Source: an uncultured Myxococcales bacterium (GTDB lineage Bacteria > Myxococcota_A > Polyangia > Palsa-1104 > JAEUJZ01). Taken from it: a DNA stretch of 64,000 nucleotides. Of this stretch, positions 5,309-25,104 are shown piece by piece. The notes beneath the pieces are model-generated. The model saw only the letters and a program-made list of their open reading frames with translations. It made no database searches and was not told the origin of the DNA. The stretch's first letter is position 1; each line of letters starts with the position of its first letter. The stretch lies in the NCBI GenBank assembly GCA_964460115.1, contig CAYWPR010000001.1, positions 120,829-184,828 on the forward strand. The letters run 5' to 3'. The translations under genes were made by a program, and so were the position numbers.

Positions 5309-6271
5309 ATGCTTCCTGCGCTAACACTTCTAGCGTTGTGCTCGCTTCCCAAGCTGCTTTTGTACCCTGACGGCCCCGTGGAAAACGGCGGCGGAACGGT
5401 CAATCGCGCGCCTCCTCCGGTGGTTTTGGTCAAAAGCGCCGGAGTGCGCGCGGTGCAAGAAGTCGCCGACGCCTTCAGCGATGGCTGCCGAGTTCACGTG
5501 CAGCAGATTTATATAGGCGAAGGACCGACCGAGATTGCGCGCGCGCGTGAGATCGTCCAGTCCGCGCGCGTGCTTGTCGCGGTGGGCCAGCCGGCCATCG
5601 AACTGATGATTGGCGTGCGCGCGCACATCGTCTATGCGCTGGCCCCCGATCCGCCCCCAGGCCTGATTGGCACCAACAACAGCGCCCCGCCTTTACAGGT
5701 CTTTAAGGCGCTTTTGTCTCTGCGTCCGCACACGCGACGAATTGCCGCCATTTCTAGCGAACGGGGCGCGCATCGGCTGGTCCAAGCGCGGGCCGCGGCG
5801 CGCAGCTTGGGCCTGGAGCTTGTCGATCTGCCGGCCGACGACAGCCGTGCCGCAATTCGCGCGCTGCGCGCACTTTTTGTACCGATGCCCGATGAGCCCG
5901 CTGGAAAGACCGCTGGCTCTCCAGTCGACGCGCTGTGGCTGGGCGCCGATCCGCAGCTTGTCGATACGCAAGTGTTGCAATTTGTTCTGCAGATGCAGAT
6001 TCAGTGGCAAGTGCCGGTGGTGGCAGCCACCCGCCAACAAGTCAGCTTCGGAGCGCTTCTAACCGTCGATTGGCCGCTAGAAGCCGTCGGACGCAACCTG
6101 GCTTGGCAAGTCAATCAGCTACTTGATGATCCCGAACACATTGCAGATTTGGCCCGCGATCATCCCATGGGTACGCCCGAGACCGTCATCAACGCCCAGG
6201 CGGCCCGGCGTTTGGGCATTTCGGTCGAGGCGCTGCGCCCGCTTCCCCCCTGGAAGGTGATCGAGCGATGA
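5309..6271 (+). CDS. periplasmic ABC_sub_bind-like (PF04392-type) solute-binding protein associated with a sensor kinase
   Basis: Signal peptide present. Periplasmic-binding-protein-like fold with no ABC permease or ATPase genes nearby. A 4-nt ATGA overlap with the downstream histidine kinase suggests translational coupling. Confidence 0.5.
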   Translation: MLPALTLLALCSLPKLLLYPDGPVENGGGTVNRAPPPVVLVKSAGVRAVQEVADAFSDGCRVHVQQIYIGEGPTEIARAREIVQSARVLVAVGQPAIELMIGVRAHIVYALAPDPPPGLIGTNNSAPPLQVFKALLSLRPHTRRIAAISSERGAHRLVQARAAARSLGLELVDLPADDSRAAIRALRALFVPMPDEPAGKTAGSPVDALWLGADPQLVDTQVLQFVLQMQIQWQVPVVAATRQQVSFGALLTVDWPLEAVGRNLAWQVNQLLDDPEHIADLARDHPMGTPETVINAQAARRLGISVEALRPLPPWKVIER

Positions 6272-9114
6272 ACCCGGCCGACCCGGCAGCAGAATCTGCA
6301 GGTGCCGCGTCTACATCTTCGCCAATCTCTCAAGAAGAACCGACCACGCCCGCGGCCTCAGCGCTTTCTGACAGCACACCGATCGATCCCGTAGCGCCCT
6401 GCGAAATCCCGGTCCCCGAAGAAAGCACCTTAAAACTCGCAACCATTTCGCGAGCAGAGGCAAATGCCGCCGCGTCCCTGAGCACGGCGGCCGCCGAACT
6501 GGCCACAGCCGCCACGACCCAGCCAAGGACCACGCCCGGCCTAGAAGGCGACAACTTATCGATACGCGAGACCCTGCCGCTGGCCCATCCGCAAAGCGTG
6601 GTCGTCAAACCGGCCGACACTTCTGATCTGAGCAAAGCCGAGGAAACGACCGAGATCCTCGGGCTTGAGCAAAGCGGCGAAATCAGCGGTTGGGGCAATC
6701 TGCTGATGCGGCAGCGCTCCAGTTTCTTTCGGCAGGTATTTTTGTGGCTTTTGGCCATCTCGCTGCTGATGTCGGTGGGCTCGGGCGCTATCTATTACAG
6801 TCGGCAGCTTGCCTTCATTGAAGAAGACGGGCAGCAGCGGGCCGAGCTTTTGCTGGGTTATCTGGCGACGCAATCGCAGCTTGGTGCCTTTGCCGGTGAC
6901 AAAGTACTGCTGGAACATCCGGTGCGCCGGGTGATCGATCAAAAAGATGTCGTCTTTGTGGCCGTCTACGATCTTTCCGGAAAGGAACTTATCAAGTCGA
7001 GCGGCCGGATCGGTCAAGCGCCGCCGGATCCGCCGGCTGGCTTGCTTGGTGAAATGCTTCGCGCCACGCGACGGGATCCGCAGATCAAACAGAAGAACAA
7101 AAACGATATCTTTTTTCAAAACGTCGCCGCCAATCACAACCACGCGCTTATCAACGAAGAATGGAACTGTCTGGATTTGTATGCGCCCATCGTCATCAGC
7201 GAACGCGGCGGACCGGGCGTGGCGGCATTCGTTTCGCCAAGCGATCGACTGACCCATGAACGCGTCGTAGGTGTGGCGCGCGTCGGCCTGTCGCTGGAAA
7301 CCGCCAATGAGCGGCTGCGCGACGTATTGCGCTGGGGGGTGGGCCTGGGGCTGCTTTTGCTGGCCATGGGGGCAACCGCCGCCTACTTTATCGCCGGCCG
7401 CATCAGCGTCCCGATTTTGGAACTTGTGCGCGGCGCCGACGAAATTCGCAACGGCAATTTGCATCCACGCATCAATGTCTCGCGCACCGACGAACTGGGC
7501 ATGCTTGCCGAATCCTTTCTGCGCATGGCCGAGCGCCTGCGTGAAACCATGTCGGCGCTGTCGCGTCTGAACCGCGATCTGGAAAGCGAAGTCAAACGGC
7601 GCACGCGGCAAATTCGCCTGGCCTACGCGTTTACCTCTGTTTTGAATTCGCCCATCGATCGCAGCGACGAAGCCATGGATGCTGCTGATTTGACGGTGAT
7701 GCTCGATCAGGCCTTGGCGGCGCTCGTCGAGGCCACCGGCACCAAAGGCGGCGGCGTCTTTTTGGCCGATGAAAGTATCAGCGACGGCGAGCTTTTGGTC
7801 CGCGCCGCTTATGGCGTCTCGACGCATACCTTGGGTCCAACGCCGCCCCTCAAAGACTTTTTAGAGCAGTGCGTCAATAACGCCGATGGCATGGTGCCGA
7901 CGCTGCATGAAGCCGTACAGGTCGTCGGCCGGCGCCTTTTGGTGCCTTTGGTCTTTCGCAACCATCCTCTAGGCCTTTTGGTGCTGGTGCTTTGCGAGGA
8001 TGAGCCGCCCGAGCAAACGCTTCTAGAGTTCGTACGCCAGGCCGCAGCGCAGATGGCCATCGCGGTCAGCAATGCTCGCGCTTACGCCCGTCTGTCGCAA
8101 CTGGCCACGGAGCTGCGTCTGCGTACCGAAACCTTGGCGGCCCAGCGCGATCAGGTCAAAGCCCAGCGCGATCAGCTTGAAACGCAGCGCAATCAGCTTG
8201 AAGAGCAGCGCAATCAATTGGCGGCGCAGGGCATGCAATTGCGCATTCAGCGCAATCAGCTTCGCGAAGTGAATCGTCTGAAGTCGGAATTTTTGGCCAA
8301 TGTCTCACACGAGCTGCGCACGCCGCTAAACGCCATCATGGGCTACTCCGAGCTTATCGATGACGAGATCTACGGTCCCATTTCGGTCGATGCGCACGAG
8401 GCGGTCACCGGCGTCCTGGCTTCCTCGGCCAATCTGCTGCGCCTTATCAATCAGATTCTGGATCTGTCGCGAATCGAGGCCGGCAAGATGGAATTCTTCT
8501 TTGAAGAGATCGACATCTCGACGGTCTGTAGCGCGGTCATTCGCGAAGCCGAGGCGATGGGTCGCGACCGGCCCTATCGCGTAGAACTTACAAGCCCGCC
8601 GGGGCTGCGCATCGTCACCGATGCCGTGAAACTGCAGCAAATTCTGACCAACCTCATCGCCAACGCCATCAAGTTCACGGCCCAGGGATCGGTCTATGTC
8701 GAGGCCAAAGAACTTCTAGGCGGCGATGTGCAGATTTCGGTACACGACACCGGAATCGGTATTAAAAGCGAGAACTTGCAGCTTATTTTCGAGGAATTTC
8801 GCCAAGTGGACGGCAGCTCGACGCGGCGATTTGGCGGGACGGGCCTGGGATTGGCCATCGCCCGCCGCCTGGCCGAAATGCTCGGGGCGACGATCTCTGT
8901 CGAAAGCACATTTGGCGAGGGCTCGGTCTTTAGTGTGCATTTGCCGCGCATTCCACCGCCGCAGCCGGCTGGCCGCTCGCGACCGCGCGACGCCGACAGC
9001 AACCCATATGTCAGTATGTTCTCGGATCCTGAGATACCGCGCCTTTTGCAAACCAACCTACTTGCCGGACCCGGGCCGAAATTGCCGCCCGATCGGTCGC
9101 AAGACGAAACATAG
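6268..9114 (+). CDS. sensor histidine kinase: N-terminal disordered cytoplasmic region, 2 TM helices with periplasmic sensor, HAMP, GAF, coiled-coil S-helix, HisKA, HATPase_c
   Basis: HAMP motif PILELVRGADEIRNGNLHPRINVSRTDELGMLAESF. H-box FLANVSHELRTPLNAI. G-boxes DTGIGI and GGTGLGLAI. Heptad repeats QRDQ/QRNQ immediately precede the H-box. Confidence 0.9.
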   Translation: MNPADPAAESAGAASTSSPISQEEPTTPAASALSDSTPIDPVAPCEIPVPEESTLKLATISRAEANAAASLSTAAAELATAATTQPRTTPGLEGDNLSIRETLPLAHPQSVVVKPADTSDLSKAEETTEILGLEQSGEISGWGNLLMRQRSSFFRQVFLWLLAISLLMSVGSGAIYYSRQLAFIEEDGQQRAELLLGYLATQSQLGAFAGDKVLLEHPVRRVIDQKDVVFVAVYDLSGKELIKSSGRIGQAPPDPPAGLLGEMLRATRRDPQIKQKNKNDIFFQNVAANHNHALINEEWNCLDLYAPIVISERGGPGVAAFVSPSDRLTHERVVGVARVGLSLETANERLRDVLRWGVGLGLLLLAMGATAAYFIAGRISVPILELVRGADEIRNGNLHPRINVSRTDELGMLAESFLRMAERLRETMSALSRLNRDLESEVKRRTRQIRLAYAFTSVLNSPIDRSDEAMDAADLTVMLDQALAALVEATGTKGGGVFLADESISDGELLVRAAYGVSTHTLGPTPPLKDFLEQCVNNADGMVPTLHEAVQVVGRRLLVPLVFRNHPLGLLVLVLCEDEPPEQTLLEFVRQAAAQMAIAVSNARAYARLSQLATELRLRTETLAAQRDQVKAQRDQLETQRNQLEEQRNQLAAQGMQLRIQRNQLREVNRLKSEFLANVSHELRTPLNAIMGYSELIDDEIYGPISVDAHEAVTGVLASSANLLRLINQILDLSRIEAGKMEFFFEEIDISTVCSAVIREAEAMGRDRPYRVELTSPPGLRIVTDAVKLQQILTNLIANAIKFTAQGSVYVEAKELLGGDVQISVHDTGIGIKSENLQLIFEEFRQVDGSSTRRFGGTGLGLAIARRLAEMLGATISVESTFGEGSVFSVHLPRIPPPQPAGRSRPRDADSNPYVSMFSDPEIPRLLQTNLLAGPGPKLPPDRSQDET
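8140..8265 (+). repeat. six in-frame 21-bp tandem repeats (gcScagcgcRatcagSttgaa-like) encoding heptads AQRDQVK/AQRDQLE/TQRNQLE/EQRNQLA/AQGMQLR/IQRNQLR
   Basis: Direct reading of the sequence. The repeats lie inside the HK CDS, in the coiled-coil linker between GAF and DHp. Confidence 0.85.
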
Positions 9115-9649: not shown

Positions 9650-9789
9650 CTAGTCCCAAGCAAATCCTGCAGACGGAGCGTCTGCATCTATGACTACTTA
9701 GGCTGTCTTACAGAACGTCGTTCAAATAACACAGGATGCCAGGCTCTGGCAACGTATGCCGCTTGATTCTGCAGAGGTGCTGCGCCAAG

Positions 9790-10977
<1,188 letters not shown>

Positions 10978-11027
10978 GCGCTGTATCGAAGCACTTTCAC
11001 GAAATCTCAAACGGATAGGAACAAGCG

Positions 11028-11420
11028 ATGGCAAAGGACTACCCGGACGATCTGCGTTACACCAAAGACCACGAATGGGTGCGCATCAATGAAACGACCA
11101 AGCGCGCGCTCGTCGGCATCACCAAGTTTGCCGTCGACCAGCTTGGCGATATCACCATGGTCGATCTGCCCAAGGAAGGCGAGTCTTTTCGTCGCGAGCA
11201 GGTGCTAGCCACCGTGGAATCGGTCAAAGCCGTGTCGGACATCTATGCTCCGCTTTCCGGCAAAGTGCTGAAGGTCAACGATCCGGTGCGCGACACTCCA
11301 GAGACGCTGAACGATGACTGCTACGACGAAGGCTGGCTGGTCGAATTGGAGCTTTCCAGCTTGGCCGAAAGCAAAGAATTGATGACCGACGTCGAATACG
11401 AGCAGCACCTTCGCGAATAA
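11028..11420 (+). CDS. gcvH: glycine cleavage system H protein (lipoyl carrier)
   Basis: YTKDHEWVR...ESVKAVSDIYAPLSGKV, with the lipoyl-lysine in the SVKA motif. Confidence 0.9.
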   Translation: MAKDYPDDLRYTKDHEWVRINETTKRALVGITKFAVDQLGDITMVDLPKEGESFRREQVLATVESVKAVSDIYAPLSGKVLKVNDPVRDTPETLNDDCYDEGWLVELELSSLAESKELMTDVEYEQHLRE

Positions 11421-11428
11421 GGACTTCG

Positions 11429-12871
11429 ATGCGCTACATCCCGCATACTGATGCAGACGTCGCAGAGATGCTGCGCGTCATCGGCGCTCAATCGGTTGAC
11501 GCGCTGTTTGCACACATTCCTGCGTCCCTGCGCCCTAGTCGGCCGCTCAACATTGCCGCGCTGGACGAAGCGGCGCTGCTTGCGCATTTGGGCCAAATCG
11601 GTGCTCATAGCGTTCCGGCAGTCGGCGATACGCCTCGCGAATTGGCGGCGCTGTCGTTTTTGGGGGCGGGGCTTGTGCCGCACCACATTCCGACGGCGGT
11701 CGATGCGATGCTATGGCGCGCCGAATGGTATACTTCCTACACGCCCTATCAGCCCGAGGTGGCGCAGGGAACCCTGCAAGCCATTTTTGAATATCAAACC
11801 CTGGTCGCCGAGCTCTTCGGCTCGCCGCCCAGCGCCGGAGCAGCGACTTATATCAGCAACGCCAGCATGTATGACGGCGCGTCGTCGGCTGCCGAAGGTG
11901 TGCTGATGGCCAGGCGGCTAACCGGGCGTTCCGCCGTGCTGTATTGCGGCGCGCTGCATCCGCAGTATGCCGACACCATTAATTGTTATCTGTCGGGGCT
12001 GCGCCGCCCGAATGAAAAGCTCGTGCATCAAGTCGGACTTAGTCCGGCGGGTGACGGGCGCATCGATATGGACGGGCTGGATCGCACGCTCAAAGAGCTT
12101 GGCAATAGCCTGGCCTGCGTGGTCGTGCAGTCGCCCAACTACTTGGGCGTCATTGAAGATCTAAACGCCATCGCCGAGCGAGTGCATGCCGCCGGCGCAC
12201 TTTTGGTGGCCGTGTGCACCGAGCCTTTGGCCATGGGACTGTTGCAGCCGCCCGGAACGCTTGGAGCCGACATCATCTGCGGCGAAGGCATGGGCCTGGC
12301 GCTGCCTCCGACGCTAGGCGGGCCGGGAGTAGGCCTTTTTGCCGCACGCGCCGAATACGCGCGCCAAATGCCTGGACGGCTGGTGGGTGAAACCGTCGAT
12401 CAAAGCGGAAGGCGCGGCTACGTGCTGACATTGGCCACGCGTGAGCAGCACATCCGCCGCGAAAAGGCGACTTCGAACATTTGCACGAACCATGGCCTTA
12501 TCGCGCTGGCATTTACAATTCATCTATCGCTTCTAGGCCGCAGTGGTTTTGTGCGCTTGGCCGAGCTGAATTTGGCCAAAGCCGAATACGCTCGGCAGAA
12601 GCTGTCGCGGCTGAGCGGTTTTCGCTTGGCGGTCAGCGGACCGACTTTCAACGAATTCGCGCTGCGGCTGCGCGGCTCGATAAGTGCAACCACGGTGGTG
12701 GAACGGCTGCGCGAACAAAACATTTTGTGCGGCGTGCCGCTTGGCCAAGCCGGCTTTCGGCTTTCGACCCTGGCCGACGCCGAGCAAGTGCTGCTTATCG
12801 CCGTCAGCGAGCGCCACAAGCGCGAAGACATCGATCGTCTGGTCACCGCTCTTGATGAGGTATGTCCATGA
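11429..12871 (+). CDS. gcvPA: glycine dehydrogenase (decarboxylating) subunit 1
   Basis: N-terminal MRYIPHTDADVAEMLRVIGAQSVDALF and about 480 aa. The split P-protein arrangement is typical. Confidence 0.9.
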   Translation: MRYIPHTDADVAEMLRVIGAQSVDALFAHIPASLRPSRPLNIAALDEAALLAHLGQIGAHSVPAVGDTPRELAALSFLGAGLVPHHIPTAVDAMLWRAEWYTSYTPYQPEVAQGTLQAIFEYQTLVAELFGSPPSAGAATYISNASMYDGASSAAEGVLMARRLTGRSAVLYCGALHPQYADTINCYLSGLRRPNEKLVHQVGLSPAGDGRIDMDGLDRTLKELGNSLACVVVQSPNYLGVIEDLNAIAERVHAAGALLVAVCTEPLAMGLLQPPGTLGADIICGEGMGLALPPTLGGPGVGLFAARAEYARQMPGRLVGETVDQSGRRGYVLTLATREQHIRREKATSNICTNHGLIALAFTIHLSLLGRSGFVRLAELNLAKAEYARQKLSRLSGFRLAVSGPTFNEFALRLRGSISATTVVERLREQNILCGVPLGQAGFRLSTLADAEQVLLIAVSERHKREDIDRLVTALDEVCP

Positions 12872-14370
12872 GCGCCGGTCAAGGCCCCATTTCCACGCGC
12901 CATCCGCTACACCAAGCGGCGTCGATTTTCGAAATCGGCGCCCCCGGACGCAACGGCGCGTCTTTGCCTGAATGCGATGTTCCAGCGGCCGATCCCGCGG
13001 CGCTTTATGGATCGCTGTTTCGTCAAAAGCCTGCGGCTTTGCCCGAGGTGTCCGAGGTCGATGTGACGCGGCATTTTACTCGTCTGTCGCGTTGGAATTA
13101 CGCCATCGACATCGGCATGTATCCGCTGGGCTCGTGCACGATGAAATACAATCCCAAGGTCAACGAACGGGTGGCCCGTTTGCCCGGCTTTGCGGGTGTG
13201 CATCCGGCCCAGCCGATTTCGACGCTACAAGGCGCCTTGGAGCTCATGCACAAGCTGGAAGGCGTCTTGTGCGAGATCTCAGGATTTTCGCGAGTGGCAC
13301 TGCAGACCGCAGCCGGTGCGCATGGCGAGCTTTGCGGCCTGATGATGATTCGCGCTTATCATCAAAGTCGCGGGCGGCATCCCAAAAAAGTGCTGATTCC
13401 CGATTCGGCGCACGGCACCAATCCCGCTTCAGCCAGCCTGAATCAGTTTGAGACGGTACCGCTGAAGACGGGTGTGGACGGCCTTTTGTCGGCGGACAGC
13501 GTCCGGGCAGCGATTGCTGCGCATCCCGACGACATCGCCGGATTGATGATCACCAATCCCTCTACCTTGGGCATTTTTGAAGAGCAAGTTTGCGACATCA
13601 CCGCCGCGGTTCACGCCGCCGGTGGCCTGGTTTATATGGATGGCGCTAACTTCAACGCGCTGCTCGGCAAGCTGCGCCCCGGCGATACCGGCGTTGACTG
13701 CATGCACTTCAACCTGCACAAAACCTTTACTACGCCCCATGGCGGCGGCGGTCCGGGTTGTGGTCCGGTTGGAGTAACCGCGGCGCTGGTCCCATTTTTG
13801 CCAACGCCGACGGTGGAAAAACACGGAGAGAGCTACACCCTAGACTGGAATCGCCCGCAATCGATTGGCCGGCTGCGCAGCTTCTTTGGCAACTTCGGCA
13901 TGATGGTGCGCGCTTATACGTACATTCGCGAGATGGGCGGCGCCGGGCTAACTCGAGCCACCGAGATGGCCGTGCTAAACGCCTGCTATCTGCGCGCGCT
14001 GATTGCGCACGAATATCCGCCGTGCTCGGAACGCCCGTCGATGCATGAAGTCGTGGTCTCGGACAAGAAACTGAAAAAAGAAACCGGCGCCCAAACCTTG
14101 GACATTGCCAAACGGCTGATCGACTACGGCTTTCATCCGCCGACGATCTATTTTCCGCTGGTCGTGCCCGGGGCGATGATGATCGAACCGACCGAGACGG
14201 AAGCCAAAGAAACCATCGACGAGTTCGCGCAAGCGATGCTCGCCATCGCCGAGGAAGCGAAAAAAACTCCAGAGCTTTTGAAAGCCGCGCCGCAACAGAC
14301 CGCCATGCGCCGTTTGGACGAAACTCGCGCCGCGCGCCAGCCCAAGTTGCGCTGGCTGCCCACGCCATAA
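12862..14370 (+). CDS. gcvPB: glycine dehydrogenase (decarboxylating) subunit 2, PLP-binding
   Basis: CMHFNLHKTFTTPHGGGGPG contains the PLP-lysine motif. A 10-nt overlap with gcvPA. Confidence 0.9.
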   Translation: MSMSAGQGPISTRHPLHQAASIFEIGAPGRNGASLPECDVPAADPAALYGSLFRQKPAALPEVSEVDVTRHFTRLSRWNYAIDIGMYPLGSCTMKYNPKVNERVARLPGFAGVHPAQPISTLQGALELMHKLEGVLCEISGFSRVALQTAAGAHGELCGLMMIRAYHQSRGRHPKKVLIPDSAHGTNPASASLNQFETVPLKTGVDGLLSADSVRAAIAAHPDDIAGLMITNPSTLGIFEEQVCDITAAVHAAGGLVYMDGANFNALLGKLRPGDTGVDCMHFNLHKTFTTPHGGGGPGCGPVGVTAALVPFLPTPTVEKHGESYTLDWNRPQSIGRLRSFFGNFGMMVRAYTYIREMGGAGLTRATEMAVLNACYLRALIAHEYPPCSERPSMHEVVVSDKKLKKETGAQTLDIAKRLIDYGFHPPTIYFPLVVPGAMMIEPTETEAKETIDEFAQAMLAIAEEAKKTPELLKAAPQQTAMRRLDETRAARQPKLRWLPTP

Positions 14371-14374
14371 AGTT

Positions 14375-15682
14375 TCACATCGGGCGTTCGCTAATCACGG
14401 CACGCACGATCGAAGTCAGGCCGTCCAGGCCCAAGCTCTTTTGCACCACCGCACGCACGCCCAGTTGCCGCAAAAGCGCCCGATCGCCGCGCGTGCTGCG
14501 CTGCGACAAAACGACCACCGGCAGATCAGTCGTATTTTCCTGACCGCGCAGCGTCGCGCAAACTTCGACTCCGTTTAGCTTGGGAAGCGCCAGATCCATG
14601 ATCACAAGGCCAAGTGGCCCGCGTTGCGCTTCCTCTAGCACCTGATCGCCATCGGTGACCATGATCACTTCGGCATCGGGCGCCGCGGCTTCCACGCACA
14701 TTCGCAACTGATCCAAAACCAGCGGATCCTCATCCGCCACCAGCACGCGCTGCGGCGGCCGGCGCAGCGTTTTGCGATGCGCGGCGATAAGCGCCGCCAT
14801 CAGCTCATCGCAGGTCTGAAATCGATTGCTCGGATCGCGCGCCACCGACTTGAGAACGGTGCGATCAAAGACCTCGGGCAAATCCGGACGAAACACCGAA
14901 GGAGGCATCGGATCCTCTTCTTGGTGTTTGCGCAATACGTCGGCAACTTCGCCGCTGGGAAATGGCAGCTTGCCGGCCATAAGCTCGTAGATGCTCATCC
15001 CCAGCGCATAAACGTCGCAACGGCGCGCTTCTTCAGGCGTGCGCGGACGATGACGAATTTGTTCGGGCGCCAGATAATCCGGCGTACCGATGATGTGAGT
15101 TCCCGAGCCACGCGAATCTGTGGATTTGGCCAGACCAAAATCCATCAGAATCGCTCGCGGCCCCGGCGCAACCATCACGTTGGCCGGTTTGATGTCACGA
15201 TGAATGATTCCGGCAGCATGAACAACCTGCACCGCGCGGCAAAGCTGCAGCGCCAGGCTGACCGCCAGATCCAGCGGAATGGCATCGTGAACGCGCACCG
15301 CTTGCACCAGGTACGAAGCCAGCGTCGGACCGACGATGTACTCCATGACCATATAGGGCACGGTCCGGTGTTCGCCCAGTGAATGCACGTGGACGACATT
15401 TTCATGGCGCACGGCCGCGAGCAATCGCGCCTCACGGCGAAATAGCGCCGCCTGTCCGGGATGTACCGCATGTTCCGGCAGCAGCACTTTGATCGCCACT
15501 TGCCGTTCCAGCGCCAGATCCTCGGCCAGATAGACCGCGCCCATAGCACCTCGGCCGATCTCGCGCACCAGGCGATAATTATCGGCCAATACTTCACCCA
15601 GGCGTGGCGCCCTGTCCGTCGCCTTGGACGAGGCGCTTTCCGCCGCTTTTCCGCTTGGCTGCTTACTATTCGACGGCGGCAT
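14375..15682 (-). CDS. Ser/Thr protein kinase with C-terminal receiver (REC) domain
   Basis: Hanks kinase motifs GRGAMGAVY, AIK, HRDIKPANV, DFGLAK and GTPDYLAPE. C-terminal VLVADEDPLVLDQL...LVIMDLALPKLNGVEV... is a CheY-like receiver with the acceptor Asp. Confidence 0.85.
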   Translation of the reverse strand: MPPSNSKQPSGKAAESASSKATDRAPRLGEVLADNYRLVREIGRGAMGAVYLAEDLALERQVAIKVLLPEHAVHPGQAALFRREARLLAAVRHENVVHVHSLGEHRTVPYMVMEYIVGPTLASYLVQAVRVHDAIPLDLAVSLALQLCRAVQVVHAAGIIHRDIKPANVMVAPGPRAILMDFGLAKSTDSRGSGTHIIGTPDYLAPEQIRHRPRTPEEARRCDVYALGMSIYELMAGKLPFPSGEVADVLRKHQEEDPMPPSVFRPDLPEVFDRTVLKSVARDPSNRFQTCDELMAALIAAHRKTLRRPPQRVLVADEDPLVLDQLRMCVEAAAPDAEVIMVTDGDQVLEEAQRGPLGLVIMDLALPKLNGVEVCATLRGQENTTDLPVVVLSQRSTRGDRALLRQLGVRAVVQKSLGLDGLTSIVRAVISERPM

Positions 15683-15986
15683 CTAGGGTCTGCTCTCGAT
15701 GACCTTAGCCACCTCCGCGCCATTCGGTACTACAACCATGGCTCGACGAGCAGTCACGGAGAGCGGCCCATTCAGTCTAACGCAGGCAGCCCTTTTCGAA
15801 CAATAAAGAATTGTTAATCTAAATTACGCAAATGAATCGATATATACATTTGTGTGGAATTGTGGGTACATATCGAGCGCTACATCGGAGCATATTTTCG
15901 AGGGGAAAGCGCAGAAGGGCGGTTTCGCGCAAGCTTTGGGGCGCGCTGGCACGAAAACCAGCCGCTAAAACTCAGCGACGGAAACG

Positions 15987-16017
15987 AATAAAGCCCTACG
16001 CATGCGCAGGGCTTTAT
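15987..16017 (-). terminator. rho-independent terminator downstream of rpsT; usable on both strands
   Basis: GC-rich hairpin AGCCCTacgcatgcgcAGGGCT, flanked by AATAA on one side and TTTAT on the other. It lies 35 nt beyond the rpsT stop. Confidence 0.6.
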
Positions 16018-16050
16018 GAAACGGAAGAATTGTGAAGAAGAAAGCGCGAG

Positions 16051-16428
16051 CTACTTCTTGGAATCGGTCTTGGCGGGCGCGGCCTTGCGAGCGGGAGCCT
16101 TTTTCACGGCAGGCTTACCGACTTGCGCGGCTTTGGCTTCTACCGCTGCTTTGATGACCGGCTTGGCTTTGTTAATGGCCAAGGTCAGACGCGAAATTTT
16201 GCGAGCCGCCGTTTTCTTGTGAATAACGCCTTTTTGCGCCGCGCGAGCAATTTGCTTCACCGCGCTTTGCACTGTCGCTTCTACAGACTCCGGAGCATCT
16301 TTTGCATGATCCAAAGCATTACGAGCTCGCTTGACGCGCGTCCGCATTGGAACTAGATGACTGAGATTGCGCGCACGGCGCTTGATACGCTGACGATTGC
16401 GTTTTTCAGCAGACTGGACGTTGGCCAA
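16051..16428 (-). CDS. rpsT: 30S ribosomal protein S20 with Lys/Ala-rich C-terminal extension; TTG start
   Basis: N-terminal (M)ANVQSAEKRNRQRIKRRARN matches the S20 consensus MANIKSAEKR. The ORF track extends to a TTG at 16440. Confidence 0.85.
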   Translation of the reverse strand: MANVQSAEKRNRQRIKRRARNLSHLVPMRTRVKRARNALDHAKDAPESVEATVQSAVKQIARAAQKGVIHKKTAARKISRLTLAINKAKPVIKAAVEAKAAQVGKPAVKKAPARKAAPAKTDSKK

Positions 16429-16506
16429 GGGATCCTCCAACAGGCGAAGCTGACTCCGTCTTTACGAAAAAAGACGTAGCCAAATGCCAGCTTTCGCGTG
16501 AAAAAG

Positions 16507-16580
<74 letters not shown>

Positions 16581-16668
16581 TCAGCAAGTCGTGAGCACTT
16601 TACTCGGCTTCTGAAGATTGTCAATAAAAATTCGAGGAATGTGCTTGGCTGCGTACGAATTCGCAGCG

Positions 16669-17364
16669 CTAGACGGGTTTTTGTAGGCTGCCAAATAGCG
16701 CCAGCGTGCGCGTCCACGCATCACACGCCGCATTTCGCCTATATGCTTCGGGCCGCGCATCATTAAAAAAGGCGTGCCCTGCCCCTTCATATTCGATCAC
16801 TTCGGTGGCAATGCCCCGCTCACGCTGTTTTTGGGCAAAAGCTTTGGCGTCGGGCACTGAAAAAAAGGATTCGGATTCGCCAAAAAACAGCAGCCCGGGG
16901 ACTGTAATTTTTTCCAAATCTACCGAGCCTTTGGGCGGAAATCCGTAGAAAGCGGCGTAGGCGTCTATGCCCGGCTGACTGGCAGCAATTGTCGCCAGAG
17001 CCCCGCCCATGCAAAATCCGACAATGGCCACATGGGTGCAGTCTTCGGCTTGACGCAGGTGCATGGCCGCGCCGGCAATTTCTTGTTCCGCCTGAGCCCA
17101 GTTTAGGCCCTTCATAAGATGTGTGGCTTCTTCGGCATCGACGGTACTTTTGCCGTGATACAGATCGGGAGCCAGGGCCACAAAGCCGAGCGCCGCAAAA
17201 CGTCGCGCCACATCCTGTATATGCGGCACGAGCCCCCACCACTCTTGCACGACGATGACCCCGGTCCGAGCCGCTGCCGGCTGCGCCAAATAGCCCTGCG
17301 CGGGCGGCAATTCTCTCCCTGTCTCAGGTCCTGGCCTGCTCGAGAAGCGAATGAGCGACGGCAT
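16669..17364 (-). CDS. dienelactone hydrolase family protein
   Basis: VIVVQEWWGL...GFCMGG (nucleophile elbow)...GAGHAF is the DLH fold signature. Confidence 0.8.
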   Translation of the reverse strand: MPSLIRFSSRPGPETGRELPPAQGYLAQPAAARTGVIVVQEWWGLVPHIQDVARRFAALGFVALAPDLYHGKSTVDAEEATHLMKGLNWAQAEQEIAGAAMHLRQAEDCTHVAIVGFCMGGALATIAASQPGIDAYAAFYGFPPKGSVDLEKITVPGLLFFGESESFFSVPDAKAFAQKQRERGIATEVIEYEGAGHAFFNDARPEAYRRNAACDAWTRTLALFGSLQKPV

Positions 17365-17377
17365 GATTTTGACTCCG

Positions 17378-17725
17378 TTAGCCGGAAGACTGCTTGAGGT
17401 AGCGCATCCGCAGATCGTAAAGCAGACCTTCCAGAACGCGACCCTCTTCAGCAGTCAGATTGCCGCGCGTTTTTTCGCGCAGCATGCCCAAAATGTCGAT
17501 CGTCTGCTTGGCCAGCGGCAGATCGATGGGCGCAGCCGCGACCCCTTCTTCATGTTCGCCAAGGTGCATCAGCGCCGAAGTCGCTAGCGACATAATGAAG
17601 CTGATGAAGTCGATTTCATGACCATTGCCTAAGGCACTGGCCCCGGCATCGCTTGATTCATCAACTCCACCGTTGCCGGTGCCGGGATTCGCTACATCAC
17701 CTGATGGATGCTTGTCGTGGGCCAT
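17378..17725 (-). CDS. DUF1844 domain protein
   Basis: FISFIMSLATSALMHLGE...KQTIDILGMLREKTRGNLTAEEGRVLEGLLYDLRMRY matches the DUF1844 consensus. Confidence 0.7.
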   Translation of the reverse strand: MAHDKHPSGDVANPGTGNGGVDESSDAGASALGNGHEIDFISFIMSLATSALMHLGEHEEGVAAAPIDLPLAKQTIDILGMLREKTRGNLTAEEGRVLEGLLYDLRMRYLKQSSG

Positions 17726-17757
17726 CGCCGCCTCTTCACCTGCGCAAACGACTGACG

Positions 17758-18084
17758 CTATTCGTCGTCGTCTTCATCGTCGTCAAGATCGTCGTCTTCG
17801 TCAAGCAGGTCATCATCATCATCATCATCAAAGTCGTCGAGCAGATCCTTATCGCCGCTCAGTCGACCGGCGCTTGGCGGCGGCGAGACGCGAATCATGG
17901 GGCGCCGTTCGCGCACCCGAAGTTCGGGTTCTTCGGCAGGAACTGAGGGCGTCGACAGATCGGCCACATCCGGCAAAGCGCCAAGATGCGCTTCCAGATC
18001 GGCTCGCGTAAGCTCGCCGCGTCGAACGCGGCGCTCGATCACGCGTACATCCCAAAAGCGAGGGTCGGTGCGCTGAATAATCAT
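17758..18084 (-). CDS. small hypothetical protein with poly-Asp/Glu C-terminal tail; ORF 17758..18435 trimmed to the ATG at 18084
   Basis: MIIQRTDPRFWDVRVIERRVRRGELTRADLEAHL...DDFDDDDDDDLLDEDDDLDDDEDDDE. The upstream part of the long ORF overlaps the C-terminus of the neighbouring gene. Confidence 0.5.
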   Translation of the reverse strand: MIIQRTDPRFWDVRVIERRVRRGELTRADLEAHLGALPDVADLSTPSVPAEEPELRVRERRPMIRVSPPPSAGRLSGDKDLLDDFDDDDDDDLLDEDDDLDDDEDDDE

Positions 18085-18148
18085 AGGGCTTCGATATAAA
18101 ACCGCCGGCGGGCTGCTGTCAACTGCTGGTTCGCTGCAAATTTGGCGC

Positions 18149-19081
18149 CTAGATAATAGTTTTGGGATATGGCGCGGCGTCGGCGACGACAGCATCGTGG
18201 GCTTGAGCTTGGCCTTGGCCTTCAACAAGGCGCAATACATCCTCGAAAATGACCTCGGCGGGCTTAGGCTTATTGGGATTAGACGATTCTTGCGGACGCG
18301 CGTAAACGCGCAAAGCGCGCACCACGTCGCGGATGCGCAAGGCGCTATGCAGAATTCTTTCCAGCGTGACATTGAATGCTGCGAATTCACCGCGGAATTT
18401 GGGATTGGTGGCATTCGCATTGTCGATGTCGCCAAGAAGCATAGTCAGAGGATTTTGCAGTTTTTGTACTGACTCGGTCAGATTGTCGAGCGGTTGATTG
18501 ATGGCGGTGGTGACCCCGGCTGCGATGCGACCGACGGCGGCCAGCTTTTCGGTGCGCACCAGTTCGTCAAGCGTTGCCCGCAAGCGATCAAGAGCCACCG
18601 AAAGCTCGGCGTTGCGGCTTTGCAATTCGGCGCTGCGCCGTGCCACTTCCGATTCAAGCTGCAGGTTTAGTTCGGTGCTAGAGCGCAGCTTGGTGATTAG
18701 CGCCCGGCGTACCTCTTCGAACACCCGCTGCAGATTGTGAACTTCCAGCGTCGCAGGCACGCTAAGAGCTATCGGCCGCTGCAGCTCACCGCGCGACAAG
18801 GCCTGCGCACTGCGCTCGGTATCGCGCAGAGGCCTTACCACCCAAAAGCCGACCCCAGCCAAAAATCCGCCAAGCCCGATCAGGTACAAAAGTCCAAGCG
18901 ATACCAGCAGCGCTGGACGCGGCTCGGCCGGCAGCGCCGAAAAAAATCCCGCCCGGCCTAAAAGCAGCGCAGCAAATCCCAGGATCGCCATTCCGCCAAG
19001 TCCTAGGCCAAGCAGCAAACGGCCGCCGAGTGACCATTTCCAGATACAGATAGAGCGAAATAAAAAGTCTCGAAGGGCCAT
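18149..19081 (-). CDS. degenerate histidine-kinase-like protein: 2 TM helices, HAMP-like linker, DHp-like helix with His replaced by Thr, no ATPase domain
   Basis: TM segments GGRLLLGLGLGGMAILGFAALLLG and LLVSLGLLYLIGLGGFLAGVGFWVV. Coiled coil present. LAAVGRIAAGVTTAINQPLDNL aligns to the HisKA H-box G-V-A-H-E-I-N-N-P-L with H->T. The protein ends without a CA domain. The ATG at 19081 was chosen; the ORF track extends to 19453. Confidence 0.6.
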   Translation of the reverse strand: MALRDFLFRSICIWKWSLGGRLLLGLGLGGMAILGFAALLLGRAGFFSALPAEPRPALLVSLGLLYLIGLGGFLAGVGFWVVRPLRDTERSAQALSRGELQRPIALSVPATLEVHNLQRVFEEVRRALITKLRSSTELNLQLESEVARRSAELQSRNAELSVALDRLRATLDELVRTEKLAAVGRIAAGVTTAINQPLDNLTESVQKLQNPLTMLLGDIDNANATNPKFRGEFAAFNVTLERILHSALRIRDVVRALRVYARPQESSNPNKPKPAEVIFEDVLRLVEGQGQAQAHDAVVADAAPYPKTII

Positions 19082-19120
19082 CGGTAGCGCTCGCAGAGCT
19101 TTCAGTTTATAAATCTTCTC

Positions 19121-19858
19121 ATGAAGAGTGCTGAAATCTCCTTCGTTTCTGTGCTTGGCATTTGTGTCAGTTTGATAGTGCTTGCCGATGCCAAGCCAGC
19201 CGCTGCGCAAAACTGCTACCCGACGCATAGTGCCGGCTTTGCGCGCATCCGCTCGTTTGAGCCTAAGGCCCTGACCCAAGCGGCCGCGGACATGGAAGTG
19301 CGGGCCCTGTTTGGGCCGCGCATCGAGCTGTGCGAAGAAGGCGCCTACAAAGCGTTTATGGACAGCTTCAAAGAGTTTTCCGCCCAGGCCATGCGCGCCT
19401 CGAAAAACTCGCGAGAGAAACTGCTGCGTTTGGCCATCGCCGTCGTACGGCAAGCGCCCACGATGGTGCCGATCAAAGAGCTAAAGACCATGTCCAGCCA
19501 CTTTCGCCAAGTGCGCTCCGACCTAAATGCCACCGCCGATGACGTTGGCTTTGCGACGACTCCGCTATTGCAGCAGCTACTGGATGCGCTTTTGAATCTG
19601 GGACCGCCGAAGTCGGCCACCGGCACCATGGTGACCGTGGAAACGCAACCGCCAACGACCACGACCCCCTCCCCCTCGAACGGTACGCCCACTGGAAGCG
19701 TCCAGCCGATTCGCGTGCCCGCCGATCCCCTGCCGCCCTGGGCCGTCATCAAACTTTACGAGATGCGCGATCACGTCAAAGCGCAGGACTTGGCGGCGAT
19801 TCAGATCAAGCTTCAGGACATCATTAATTGGATCGAGAACAAAACTCGCGATCAGTAG
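19121..19858 (+). CDS. hypothetical secreted protein (signal peptide, Thr/Pro linker, helical C-terminal domain)
   Basis: Signal peptide MKSAEISFVSVLGICVSLIVLADAKPAAAQ. No known domain. Divergent from the pseudo-HK. Confidence 0.5.
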   Translation: MKSAEISFVSVLGICVSLIVLADAKPAAAQNCYPTHSAGFARIRSFEPKALTQAAADMEVRALFGPRIELCEEGAYKAFMDSFKEFSAQAMRASKNSREKLLRLAIAVVRQAPTMVPIKELKTMSSHFRQVRSDLNATADDVGFATTPLLQQLLDALLNLGPPKSATGTMVTVETQPPTTTTPSPSNGTPTGSVQPIRVPADPLPPWAVIKLYEMRDHVKAQDLAAIQIKLQDIINWIENKTRDQ

Positions 19859-19915
19859 CCCGGCGCAGCCAAGCCCTGCCACGCAAAGATTTCAGCCACC
19901 AAGCGAGGTCTTAAG

Positions 19916-21355
19916 ATGAGTGCGCAAACTTTCGAAAGCATCGTCGCACCCTTAGATGCCATTGTGCTGGCGGCGGGTCTGGGCACGCGCATGCATTCGC
20001 AGCGGGTCAAAGTTTTGCACCCCTTGTGCGGCCGACCGATGCTGGAGCATACGCTGCGGCTTTTGGCCCCGCTTGGTGTGCGGCGCACAATTTTGGTCCT
20101 TGGCCATCAGGCCGACGCGGTGGCTGAGACGCTGCGCCAGCGCCAAGTACAGCCGCCGGATCTGCAAATCGCCATTCAAGCGGCCCAGCGCGGAACTGCT
20201 GATGCGGTGCGCTCGGCCCTGCCCTTTTTGCCCGAGGACAGCGCCGGGGTGGTGATTTTGTATGGCGACACGCCGCTTTTGACCGGCCCGCGCTTGCACG
20301 CACTATGCAGTTTGCTGACGGCGAAAAAAGACCGAAAGCTGGCCCTTTTGACCACGCGTTTGGCCAATCCCGCAGGATACGGCAGGCTGATTCGCGATGG
20401 TGGCGGTGCCCCGCTGCGCATCGTCGAAGATCGCGATTGCTCACCCGTAGAGCGCTTGCAGGATGAAGTCAACGCCGGCATGTATGCCGTAAACAGCGCT
20501 TTTTTGCGCCGTGCCCTTTTGCAAGTACGCGCCGAGAACGCTCAGCGGGAATTTTATCTGACCGACCTTTTGTCGCTGGCCGTGGCCGAGGGCGCTGATG
20601 TCGCCGCCCTTTCCGCGCCTGCCGAAGAAGTCATGGGCGTCAACGACCGCGTCGATCTTTCGCATGCCGAGACGATTATGCGACGGCGAATTTGCGAAGC
20701 CCATATGCGCCGGGGCGTCAGCTTGCACAACCCCGACAGCATCTGTATCGACGACGAAGTAGAAATCGGCGCGGACAGCGAAATTGGTCCAAACGTAATT
20801 CTGCGCGGCCGTACCCGCATCGGGGCCCGCTGCCATATAGATGTGGGCTGCGTGCTAAGCGATGTCAGCGTGGCCGATGACAGCCATCTAAAGCCCTACT
20901 GTGTGGCCGCGGACAGCGTCCTTGGCAAAGCGGTGCAGGTCGGGCCGTTTTCGCATCTGCGACCGGGCAGCAAGCTGGAGCACGACGCCCACGTCGGTAA
21001 CTTCGTCGAATTGAAAAAAACCTATCTAGGCGCCGGCAGCAAAGCCAACCACTTGGCCTACCTTGGCGATGCGGAAATCGGCGCCAACGTCAACGTCGGC
21101 TGCGGCACGATCACTTGCAATTACGACGGTTTTGCCAAGCACCGCACGGTCATCGAGGACGGAGTTTTTATCGGCTCGGACGTTCAATTGGTAGCACCGG
21201 TGCATGTGGGCAAAGGCGCAATCATCGCCGCCGGCACCACCGTCACCAAAGATGTACCGGCCGGGGCCTTGACGCTAAGCCGCGTACCGCAAATCGACAA
21301 ACCCGGCTACGCCGAGCCGCTGCGCAATCGCTTGCGCCAAAAAAAGGAACCCTAA
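19916..21355 (+). CDS. glmU: bifunctional UDP-N-acetylglucosamine pyrophosphorylase / glucosamine-1-phosphate N-acetyltransferase
   Basis: N-terminal AIVLAAGLGTRM nucleotidyltransferase motif. C-terminal left-handed beta-helix hexapeptide repeats. About 479 aa. Confidence 0.9.
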   Translation: MSAQTFESIVAPLDAIVLAAGLGTRMHSQRVKVLHPLCGRPMLEHTLRLLAPLGVRRTILVLGHQADAVAETLRQRQVQPPDLQIAIQAAQRGTADAVRSALPFLPEDSAGVVILYGDTPLLTGPRLHALCSLLTAKKDRKLALLTTRLANPAGYGRLIRDGGGAPLRIVEDRDCSPVERLQDEVNAGMYAVNSAFLRRALLQVRAENAQREFYLTDLLSLAVAEGADVAALSAPAEEVMGVNDRVDLSHAETIMRRRICEAHMRRGVSLHNPDSICIDDEVEIGADSEIGPNVILRGRTRIGARCHIDVGCVLSDVSVADDSHLKPYCVAADSVLGKAVQVGPFSHLRPGSKLEHDAHVGNFVELKKTYLGAGSKANHLAYLGDAEIGANVNVGCGTITCNYDGFAKHRTVIEDGVFIGSDVQLVAPVHVGKGAIIAAGTTVTKDVPAGALTLSRVPQIDKPGYAEPLRNRLRQKKEP

Positions 21356-23111: not shown

Positions 23112-23570
23112 ATGGCTATCGAACTGACTTTGGGCATGATTAAGCCCGACGCTGTAGAAAAGGGTCACCAGTGGCACATTCTTGCCGACATCGCCTCAAG
23201 CGGCTTAAAGCCGGTGGCGGTGCGCCTCACCCGCATGAGCAAGGAAATGGCCAAGGTTTTTTACATCGTTCACAAAGAACGACCCTTTTACGATGGACTG
23301 ACGAACTTTATGTCTTCGGGTCCGATTGTCGCCATGGTCCTTGAAGGGGAAGACGCCATTCACAAGTATCGCGAGATTATGGGAGCGACCGATGTGAAAA
23401 AGGCGGCGCCCGGCACGCTGCGCGCCAAGTTTGGCGAGAGCATTGAACGCAATGCGGTACACGGCAGCGATGCGCCGGAAACCGCCCGTCGAGAAATCAG
23501 CTTCTTCTTTACGATTCAGGAGCTGACCCCGCTAGGCGTCATCATCGGCGAGGCAGAGAAGAAGGCGTAG
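23112..23570 (+). CDS. ndk: nucleoside diphosphate kinase
   Basis: TLGMIKPDAV...NAVHGSD contains the active-site His. About 152 aa. Confidence 0.95.
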   Translation: MAIELTLGMIKPDAVEKGHQWHILADIASSGLKPVAVRLTRMSKEMAKVFYIVHKERPFYDGLTNFMSSGPIVAMVLEGEDAIHKYREIMGATDVKKAAPGTLRAKFGESIERNAVHGSDAPETARREISFFFTIQELTPLGVIIGEAEKKA

Positions 23571-25104
23571 CCTCTGATTCTGCCGGCGCATGGGCCGGCA
23601 AAATCAGCTCGAAGGTCGTGCCGACTGGGCTCGTGTGTACATCCACGCTGCCGCCATGGTCGTGCACGATCTCGCGCACGAAGGAAAGTCCAAGGCCCGT
23701 GCCCTGCGCCCGCGTGGTGAAAAAGGGAATCCAGATCTTCGGCAAGGCCTCGGCGCCAATTCCCGGACCGCTGTCGCGCACAACAAACCGCACCGCGGCC
23801 CTTTCAGAAGAAAGCCGCGCCGCCTCGGCGACGAGCTCGACGCGACGGGGACGCAAATCATCGGCAGGCAACGCGACCAAGGCCTGCACTGCATTATGCG
23901 CCAGATTTAGCAGCACCCGACGCAGTTGGGTGGCATCGGCGTGCACGAATAGTGCGGTATCCGGACGCGGACATTCTACGATTACCTCCGCCGGCGCCTT
24001 GGCACTGGCGCTGTCGCGTACCTCGCAAAGCACGTCAAATGCCGACACCGCCGTCAATATCGGCCGCGGCCGGCGCGCGTAGTCCAAAAAATCATTGACC
24101 ACCGCCTGAAGGTGCCAAAGCTCTTTACGAATGCGCTGTACGTACGATTGCGCCGTGGCAATGTTGACAGGGCTTGGTTCTAGCGCTCCGTCGGCTGGCG
24201 CGCCGGGCGACTGTAGCTCTTCGGCTAGCAGTCCGGCATAAAGCTCCATGCCGCCAAGCGGATTTCGCACTTCGTGAGCAATGCCGGAAAGCATCATCTG
24301 CATGCGTTCATCGCGAGCCCGCAGCGCCTGACGCATCGTCTCAAGCCCTTCGCCAAGTTCGGCAACCTCATCGCCACCTTTGCGCACGAGCACGGGATGG
24401 TCGAAAACGCCACTGCCGATAAGCCGAGCGCTTTCCAGCAAGCGCCGCAGCGGCCGAGTCAGCCCCAGCCCCAAAAGCACCGCCAAAAGCACCATGCCAA
24501 GCCCCCCCCCACCGCCGACCCACAACAATGTTTTGCGCAGCAAAAGCAGGTCGGCATAAATCGCCGCGTTGCCATCCACTCCGACCGCAAATCGCACGCC
24601 TTCTTGACCGCCAGCAGCAGCAATCGGCGCATAGCCGGATTTGTACAATTTTCCGTCGCGTCCGCGAAACAGTAGCGAAGAAACCGGCTGCCCGGCCTGG
24701 CCGGTCTGCAAAGCCGGAAATACCTGACGCAGCTCTGTGCGATTGCTGTCTAAGCCATAGTAGCGGGTGCCAATCGGCTGCTCATCGGTGTCTACTCGCG
24801 CCGTCAAGTCCGCAGCAAACAAGTAAACCCGCGCCACCCCGCTGGCATCGCGTATCTCGATGAGCCGACGGCGCAGATTGCGGTAGGTGCGACTTTGTTC
24901 ATCACCCGGCGAAAGCAGCGCCACGCTTTCTTCGGCAATTTGGGTCGCGGCAACCGCGGCGATGCCGGACAGCCGACGCCCAAGCTCGGCCTCTAGCGCA
25001 CGCGCCGCCGCATAATGGCCCAGCACGGCAAAGCCGGCAAAGGTAAGCACCGTCGGTGTCAAAATGCCCAAAAGCAATTTGCTAAGCAGCGAAATCCGCG
25101 CCAT
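23542..25104 (-). CDS. sensor histidine kinase (2 TM helices, periplasmic sensor domain, HAMP, HisKA, HATPase_c)
   Basis: H-box GIAHEVRNPLGG. N-box LLNLAHNAVQA. G-boxes DSGPGI and GTGLGLS. Confidence 0.9.
   Translation of the reverse strand: MARISLLSKLLLGILTPTVLTFAGFAVLGHYAAARALEAELGRRLSGIAAVAATQIAEESVALLSPGDEQSRTYRNLRRRLIEIRDASGVARVYLFAADLTARVDTDEQPIGTRYYGLDSNRTELRQVFPALQTGQAGQPVSSLLFRGRDGKLYKSGYAPIAAAGGQEGVRFAVGVDGNAAIYADLLLLRKTLLWVGGGGGLGMVLLAVLLGLGLTRPLRRLLESARLIGSGVFDHPVLVRKGGDEVAELGEGLETMRQALRARDERMQMMLSGIAHEVRNPLGGMELYAGLLAEELQSPGAPADGALEPSPVNIATAQSYVQRIRKELWHLQAVVNDFLDYARRPRPILTAVSAFDVLCEVRDSASAKAPAEVIVECPRPDTALFVHADATQLRRVLLNLAHNAVQALVALPADDLRPRRVELVAEAARLSSERAAVRFVVRDSGPGIGAEALPKIWIPFFTTRAQGTGLGLSFVREIVHDHGGSVDVHTSPVGTTFELILPAHAPAESEATPSSLPRR

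Follow-up and report, generated by a model that had tools for sequence, protein, structure and literature searches.

We analyzed a 64,000-nt stretch of DNA from an uncultured Myxococcales bacterium (hereafter the window), in which four closely packed open reading frames run on the minus strand from 19081 to 16669 and are followed by rpsT and a tRNA-Met gene. The first frame encodes a 310-aa protein (19081..18149), here called the pseudo-kinase, with two transmembrane (TM) helices, a HAMP domain, a coiled coil, and a dimerization and histidine phosphotransfer (DHp) hairpin, and without an ATPase domain. After a gap of 64 nt comes the gene for a 108-aa protein with an acidic tail (18084..17758) and, 32 nt further on, that for a 115-aa DUF1844 protein (17725..17378), all three co-directional. 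An initial annotation, made from the sequence alone, had reported these three genes at positions where we found all of them, and had read them as one operon. It had overlooked the conserved neighbor of the pseudo-kinase gene, which is sec245 (19121..19858), a divergent gene on the plus strand that encodes a secreted, all-α protein of 245 aa and lies across an intergenic region of 39 nt (19082..19120). As detailed below, we favor, with moderate confidence in the explanation as a whole, that two unrelated modules abut here: a sec245/pseudo-kinase pair (module A) and an acidic-tail/DUF1844 cassette (module B).

The two hydrophobic helices that had been noted in the pseudo-kinase were recovered (TM1, ~aa 18–43; TM2, ~aa 56–83). 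The second is followed by a HAMP domain (PF00672, aa 80–128; 25.7 bits against a Pfam cutoff of 25), a signaling coiled coil, KLRSSTELNLQLESEVARRSAEL (aa 131–153), and a DHp-like hairpin (~aa 166–261). An AlphaFold2 (AF2) model was all helical (mean predicted local distance difference test score 78.6, above 90 at residues 120–180), with a continuous helix at 112–221, a return helix at 227–261, a last helix at 275–300, and no α/β domain; the protein ends ~50 aa past DHp helix 2. Foldseek found nothing significant for this model in the PDB (best E 2), a long helical monomer being uninformative in such a search. By sequence, the closest solved relative is ZraS: the family profile matched ZraS (9jfj) with an E value of 1.5e-15 and the DHp part of FixL chimeras with 2.7e-13. 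The NCBI start of the protein is Met31 (280 aa; 18991 rather than 19081), which would remove TM1. We favor the start at 19081 because the N-terminal extension is conserved from residue 15 in the relative P0003 (locus L004); this start leaves just 39 nt between the divergent start codons.

The profile alignment paired the family motif AAsvtseInePv with AAGVAHEIRNPL of ZraS. Thr192 of the window protein (codon ACC, 18508..18506, minus strand), in the motif GVTTAINQPL, falls in the column of the HisKA phospho-acceptor His, opposite the His of GVAHEIRNPL in ZraS, confirming the substitution of Thr for His that had been proposed. Across a 28-sequence family alignment, this column reads Ser (19), Ala (3), Asp (2), Gly (2), Thr (1), and Leu (1), and never His. 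The profile alignment placed no His elsewhere in the helix. The three His residues of the window protein (115, 245, and 295) all lie in unconserved columns, and every column of the family alignment holds His in at most 5 of the 28 sequences. There is thus no conserved His column in the family.

The absence of an ATP-binding domain, also reported earlier, was borne out as well. Pfam gave no HATPase_c match to the pseudo-kinase, the N, G1, F, and G2 boxes were not found, and HAMP alone was matched, with the HisKA model below threshold; the NCBIfam matches were weak and partial, to the DHp regions of numerous kinases. Because the phospho-acceptor His is lost and no catalytic domain is present, the pseudo-kinase should be unable to autophosphorylate, as the initial annotation had stated, and we conclude from its sequence that it would neither accept nor donate a phosphoryl group at the canonical site. 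A phosphatase role had also been proposed. We rejected it: the (E/D)xx(T/N) motif expected after the His column is absent from the window protein, which reads T-A-I-N-Q (+1, Ala; +4, Gln), and is variable in the family, where the +1 column holds Ala (13), Glu (11), Asp (3), and Ser (1) and the +4 column Thr (7), Glu (6), Asn (6), Ala (5), Gln (2), Val (1), and Asp (1) in the 28 aligned sequences.

We examined where this protein comes from. A k-mer-limited protein search retrieved the 28 pseudo-kinase relatives (34–54% identity), nearly all of 236–425 aa and none annotated with HATPase_c. Twenty-five columns are invariant across the 28 sequences, including HAMP Pro84 and most of the signaling helix, and the most conserved parts are the HAMP domain, this helix, and both DHp helices. 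An exhaustive search with a hidden Markov model profile then covered 1.84 billion representatives, and an H-box pattern was applied to the best 150; the boundary between His-less and His-bearing proteins is sharp. Fourteen representatives (E ≤ 3.7e-64) precede the first His-bearing kinase, P0114 (rank 15, E 9.3e-62); the H-box could be read in 12 of these 14, and all 12 lack the His. Among the best 150, 114 carry AHE(I/L/V)NNP with ~220–250 residues after it, 15 are His-less (Ser, Thr, Asp, Ala, Gly, or Glu), and 21 were not parsed by the pattern. The lower-ranked matches are almost all AHEINNP kinases of ~500–900 aa. The sister kinases P0114 and P0115 have the Pfam architecture HAMP+HisKA+HATPase_c and the H-box AHEINNP; the context of P0114 was uninformative, its contig being too short. 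All genome matches of the pseudo-kinase family belong to Polyangia/Myxococcales metagenome-assembled genomes (MAGs), and every carrier found of either module is an uncultured MAG or a contig from a metagenome.

Between these kinases and the window protein lie long-form His-less members that retain a degenerate catalytic domain (P0012, P0024–28, P0111, P0113, and P0140). In a regional alignment, another residue replaces their N-box Asn, G1 has become D(D/S/N)GPPL, and neither the F nor the G2 box is left; Pfam found neither HisKA nor HATPase_c in the His-less members tested, including P0111. In the short forms, that of the window included, only ~40–50 residues follow the conserved VRAMRVYARP in DHp helix 2; the catalytic fold is absent from the window protein and most of the family. 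The comparison shows descent of the pseudo-kinase from a HAMP-HisKA-HATPase_c sensor kinase lineage, as far as sequence can trace it, and the family displays what appear to be successive stages, from kinase to His-less protein with a dead ATPase domain to DHp-only protein. P0111 itself (888 aa; L025, 4849–7515) stands apart. It is His-less and HATPase-less, has an N-terminal region of ~530 aa, and is preceded by co-directional genes for proteins of 103 and 434 aa without Pfam domains. There is no sec245 in its context, and we excluded this deeper branch from the sec245 pair. P0111 may represent a preceding stage in the loss of kinase function within this lineage, or such a loss that occurred independently.

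Could the window gene simply be a decaying pseudogene, that is, a once complete kinase gene that a nonsense mutation or a frameshift has recently cut short and left without function? Two features speak for this. The last helix (aa 275–300, AEVIFEDVLRLVEG) resembles the first helix of the catalytic domain in the regional alignment and appears vestigial, and longer relatives with degenerate catalytic domains do exist. However, when full-length longer relatives and a true kinase were compared by tblastn with 16601..19200, no catalytic-domain remnant was detected in any frame: the only significant match was the HAMP-DHp region itself, the rest being chance matches (E > 0.3). The check for a fused ancestral frame or a frameshifted catalytic domain downstream, which the initial annotation had called for, therefore came back negative, and the next gene, itself conserved, begins only 64 nt on. 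Moreover, many independent MAGs carry the short form, with 25 positions invariant, and the loss of the His is family-wide rather than private to the window gene. The pseudogene reading is already refuted by this conservation, to the extent that sequence comparison can do so, and we give it almost no weight. The pseudo-kinase is very probably a conserved non-catalytic kinase derivative.

We next turn to its genomic partner. A tblastn comparison of the window proteins with the retrieved loci found a sec245 homologue (37–67% identity) divergent to the pseudo-kinase gene in every locus. Starting in reverse from the most divergent 245-aa homologue (42% identity) led again to a divergent His-less pseudo-kinase, of the long form. 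In all, the pairing was seen in 21 of 21 loci. The sec245 protein has a signal peptide ending AAA|QNC, conserved Cys residues at C32 and C71, a disordered Pro/Thr-rich linker (aa 169–195), and a C-terminal helical hairpin; a PDB sequence search with its profile gave no meaningful match. We consider it likely that the partner of the pseudo-kinase is this secreted protein and not the acidic-tail and DUF1844 genes. The strict pairing suggests that the two proteins act in one pathway.

The 39-nt divergent region, taken with the first codons on either side, carries an AT-rich palindromic element, ...GAGAAGATTTATAAACTGAAAGC...GCGCTACCG on the minus strand; a palindrome, TTTATAAA, lies inside GAGAAGATTTATAAACTGAAAGC, 7 nt from the sec245 ATG. 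The element is nearly identical in the window, L002, L004, and L027, and its GCGCTACC part is also present in L005. Because it is non-coding in L004, it is probably a shared promoter or operator, and the sec245 mRNA may be nearly leaderless.

The neighbor of the pair is glmU in the window and nine of the retrieved loci, and folP-cdaA-ybbR in four others. In the window, glmU lies 57 nt beyond sec245 on the same strand (74% identity to a gene with NTP_transferase and Hexapep domains). In more distant Polyangia (L001, L006, and L007; ~1640–4874 in L001), the pair directly follows ftsH-folP-cdaA(DAC)-ybbR. Both neighborhoods concern cyclic di-AMP or UDP-N-acetylglucosamine and cell-envelope precursor genes. 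A link of the pair to the envelope is possible because it adjoins glmU or cdaA-ybbR.

Module B has a different distribution. The acidic-tail protein consists of an N-terminal domain (DPRFWDVRVxERRxRRGELT...HLxxLPDV), a Pro/Arg-rich middle, and a poly-Asp/Glu tail. The tail had been described as ~35 residues of almost pure Asp/Glu; it is real, but slightly shorter and less pure (aa 78–108; 31 residues, 24 of them Asp or Glu, net charge −23). The 75 residues before it are Arg-rich and overall nearly neutral. We found no match to the protein in Pfam, NCBIfam, or, by profile, the PDB, and its N-terminal domain has homologues in ~39 clusters. The assignment of the next gene to DUF1844 held up (PF08899, aa 37–110; 96.8 bits against a cutoff of 27, E 8.3e-28), and this protein is an ordinary PF08899 member; a PDB sequence search with it gave no meaningful match.

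The informative gene contexts come from three look-ups of contigs, from metagenome loci (12 of 13, the remaining contig being just 1.2 kb long), and from a distant homologue of 63 aa that has no tail. In all of them, DUF1844 lies immediately downstream of the acidic-gene homologue, sometimes overlapping it. No flanking gene besides DUF1844 is conserved across these loci. In the window, a gene for a dienelactone-hydrolase family protein (17364..16669, minus strand; 231 aa, PF01738 E 6.5e-50) starts 13 nt past the DUF1844 stop. Such a gene follows DUF1844 in L002–4, L021, L023, L027, and L034, but not in L022, L028, or L030–39: it is a frequent, not a universal, third gene of the cassette. A literature search on DUF1844 returned one incidental mention and no earlier account of a fixed upstream partner or of a near-leaderless promoter.

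Comparison of the upstream regions revealed a promoter-like site at the start of the acidic-tail gene (18082..18122, minus strand). In the window, it consists of TTGACA (18122..18117), an 18-nt spacer, TATATC (18098..18093), and 8 nt before the ATG (18084..18082), all inside the 64-nt gap that follows the pseudo-kinase stop. The pattern common to the loci is TTGAC(A/T), a variable N17–19, TA(T/A)AT(C/G), and 7–10 nt before the ATG, with the spacer sequence varying between loci and both hexamers kept. Other examples lie at 7206–7246 in L002, 6959–6999 in L004, 6008–6048 in L021, and 3944–3985 in L030. A sigma-70 scan tool missed the site because its −10 hexamer ends in C; it was recognized by the comparison of loci. 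The 64-kb window has a single match to the pattern, and 100 shuffles have none. It occurs exactly once per locus in 19 of 19 acidic-gene loci, always at the gene start, and in none of 22 other loci. The spacing between promoter and ATG leads us to infer that the acidic/DUF1844 mRNA would be leaderless or have a leader of 1–3 nt. A clade comprising L022, L023, and L030–L039 carries an extra element, GGGAGTTTG(A/G)G, just upstream of the −35 hexamer.

These data bear directly on the operon proposed in the initial annotation, in which the membrane-bound pseudo-kinase anchors or recruits the poly-acidic protein and forms a functional trio with DUF1844. The three genes are indeed co-directional, with gaps of only 64 and 32 nt and no terminator-like site between them, and the same order recurs in L002/L003, L004, and L027. 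However, the order pseudo-kinase–acidic–DUF1844, whose conservation the initial annotation had proposed to check, is confined to the window and these closest relatives (~48–54% pseudo-kinase identity). Beyond them the trio is split: 17 other pseudo-kinase loci have neither the acidic gene nor DUF1844 within 8 kb, a pattern at odds with a membrane anchor for the polyanion, and 14 other acidic/DUF1844 loci lack the pseudo-kinase. Assembly JAEUJZ01 has module A on one contig (L011) and module B on another (L021). Finally, the acidic gene has its own conserved promoter-like site, whose position inside the 64-nt gap suggests a separate transcript for acidic/DUF1844. The trio operon model is thus largely refuted by the phyletic pattern, and we regard it as very improbable. 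Instead, module B, often with the dienelactone hydrolase gene, would be an independent and probably leaderless unit with its own conserved promoter of the sigma-70 type.

Returning to module A, we compared the pseudo-kinase with kinase derivatives of known function. Histidine pseudokinases are already known, and the window family belongs to a different HisKA sub-lineage from that of DivL or PsmA. DivL of Caulobacter crescentus has Tyr in place of the His, and its DHp core docks DivK~P (PMC4211667). Like DivL, the window protein is derived from a histidine kinase (HK), has its phospho-acceptor His replaced, and is membrane-anchored; by analogy, it may likewise use the HK fold as a non-catalytic adaptor. 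Unlike DivL, which regulates CckA and has a full catalytic domain and PAS domains, it has neither kind of domain, it has a HAMP domain, and it falls in a HisKA sub-lineage of Polyangia unrelated to that of DivL. PsmA of Streptomyces venezuelae has a variable His column and degenerate ATP-binding motifs, acts through contact with DivIVA, and lacks the (D/E)xx(T/N) motif, the same criterion that we applied to the window protein (PMC12963549). PsmA, a cytoplasmic protein resembling a hybrid HK, has PAS and receiver-like parts and keeps the dead catalytic fold; the window protein, by contrast, is short and membrane-bound and breaks off after the DHp hairpin.

The ZraS/AtoS/FixL-type kinases (P0114, P0115, and PDB 9jfj) are homologous to the pseudo-kinase over HAMP, signaling helix, and DHp, with the same long hairpin. 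The window protein lacks what these kinases have: the His, the N, G1, F, and G2 boxes, and, in most of them, a large periplasmic sensor domain. Spo0B and ChpT are phosphotransferases with a DHp-like four-helix bundle and without autokinase activity. The window protein shares with them the DHp-type helical hairpin and the lack of autokinase activity, and it too is predicted to form a dimer. However, Spo0B and ChpT are soluble and have a phosphorylatable His and a pseudo-catalytic α/β domain; without the His, phosphotransfer by the window protein would be impossible. The window protein thus resembles a histidine pseudokinase in that its His is replaced and its sequence conserved under selection, and differs from one in that the catalytic fold is not retained.

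What might such a protein do? The pseudo-kinase keeps the TM anchor, the HAMP domain, the signaling coiled coil, and the DHp hairpin, and it most likely still forms dimers, with a HAMP bundle and a four-helix bundle of DHp helices. It would then act as a non-catalytic adaptor, whose only possible output would be protein-protein contact through the DHp-like bundle. Such a contact could consist in docking a response regulator, as in DivL, or in pairing with and silencing a sister kinase. We regard any specific output mechanism as less likely than not. The pseudo-kinase and sec245 would share a pathway, which may be connected with the cell envelope.

The second kind of contact is also the basis of a rival explanation, in which the pseudo-kinase acts as a dominant negative: through its nearly identical signaling helix and DHp, it would heterodimerize with a bona fide sister kinase (KLRSSTE.NL.LE...AHEINNP lineage) whose gene lies elsewhere in the genome, and block or tune its autophosphorylation. 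Heterodimeric control of sensor kinases is an established principle, RetS–GacS being an example, and pseudo-kinases and sister kinases are much alike in the coiled coil and DHp helix 1 (E down to the order of 1e-62 over HAMP-DHp). Against it, DHp helix 2 of the pseudo-kinases has a signature of its own (VRAMRVYARP versus VQALHNYSRGD), the strict pairing with sec245 is left unexplained, and the 64-kb window shows no sister kinase. The initial annotation had suggested heterodimers with the HKs of the window, and this pairing was dropped: the two HKs tested are not close to the pseudo-kinase, with BLASTP E values of 0.32 and 0.006, the latter over HAMP only. We therefore consider dominant-negative control rather unlikely. 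Two bona fide sensor kinases lie in the window, neither closely related to the pseudo-kinase: one (23542..25104, minus strand) is a HAMP-HisKA-HATPase_c protein whose unusually long DHp loop is similar in length to that of the pseudo-kinase, and the other (6268..9114, plus strand) is a HAMP-GAF-HisKA-HATPase_c protein.

Our preferred reading, a sec245/pseudo-kinase signaling pair abutting an independent module B, has several points weighing against it. The missing phosphatase motif leaves no positive clue to the output of the pseudo-kinase. Its extracytoplasmic part is at most ~12 residues long and poorly conserved, the N-terminal/TM region as a whole is poorly conserved, and some homologues have a single TM helix; it is therefore not evident that a periplasmic protein could touch it directly. 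The sec245/pseudo-kinase pairing might reflect co-regulation only. The envelope connection is a weak hint from gene neighborhood. For module B, no terminator was found in the 64-nt gap, and read-through from the pseudo-kinase gene is possible.

Elsewhere in the window lies a gene for a Ser/Thr protein kinase fused to a C-terminal receiver (14375..15682, minus strand; Pkinase aa 36–288, Response_reg aa 313–426), and this gene adjoins rpsT in L002. Upstream of it is a glycine-cleavage cluster (9736..14370, plus strand; gcvT and gcvP subunits 1 and 2), an ordinary housekeeping context. Rfam found the tRNA-Met only over 15500..20500, and PADLOC and PHROGs gave zero matches, and hence no sign of a defense or phage origin.

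Taken together, these results raise the possibility, which we put forward as speculative, that sec245 and the pseudo-kinase form an undescribed envelope signaling module of Polyangia, in which a sensor scaffold would work without phosphoryl chemistry, by purely conformational or protein-protein coupling. Neither the pseudo-kinase pair nor module B overturns current understanding. In module B, the orphan family DUF1844 is for the first time given a fixed genomic partner. Recognition of histidine pseudokinases, among them DivL and PsmA, has only just begun, and the window family would stand at the extreme, with nothing left but anchor, HAMP, coiled coil, and DHp. With its visible evolutionary intermediates and strictly conserved secreted partner, it would offer a clean system for the function of a DHp bundle without phosphotransfer.

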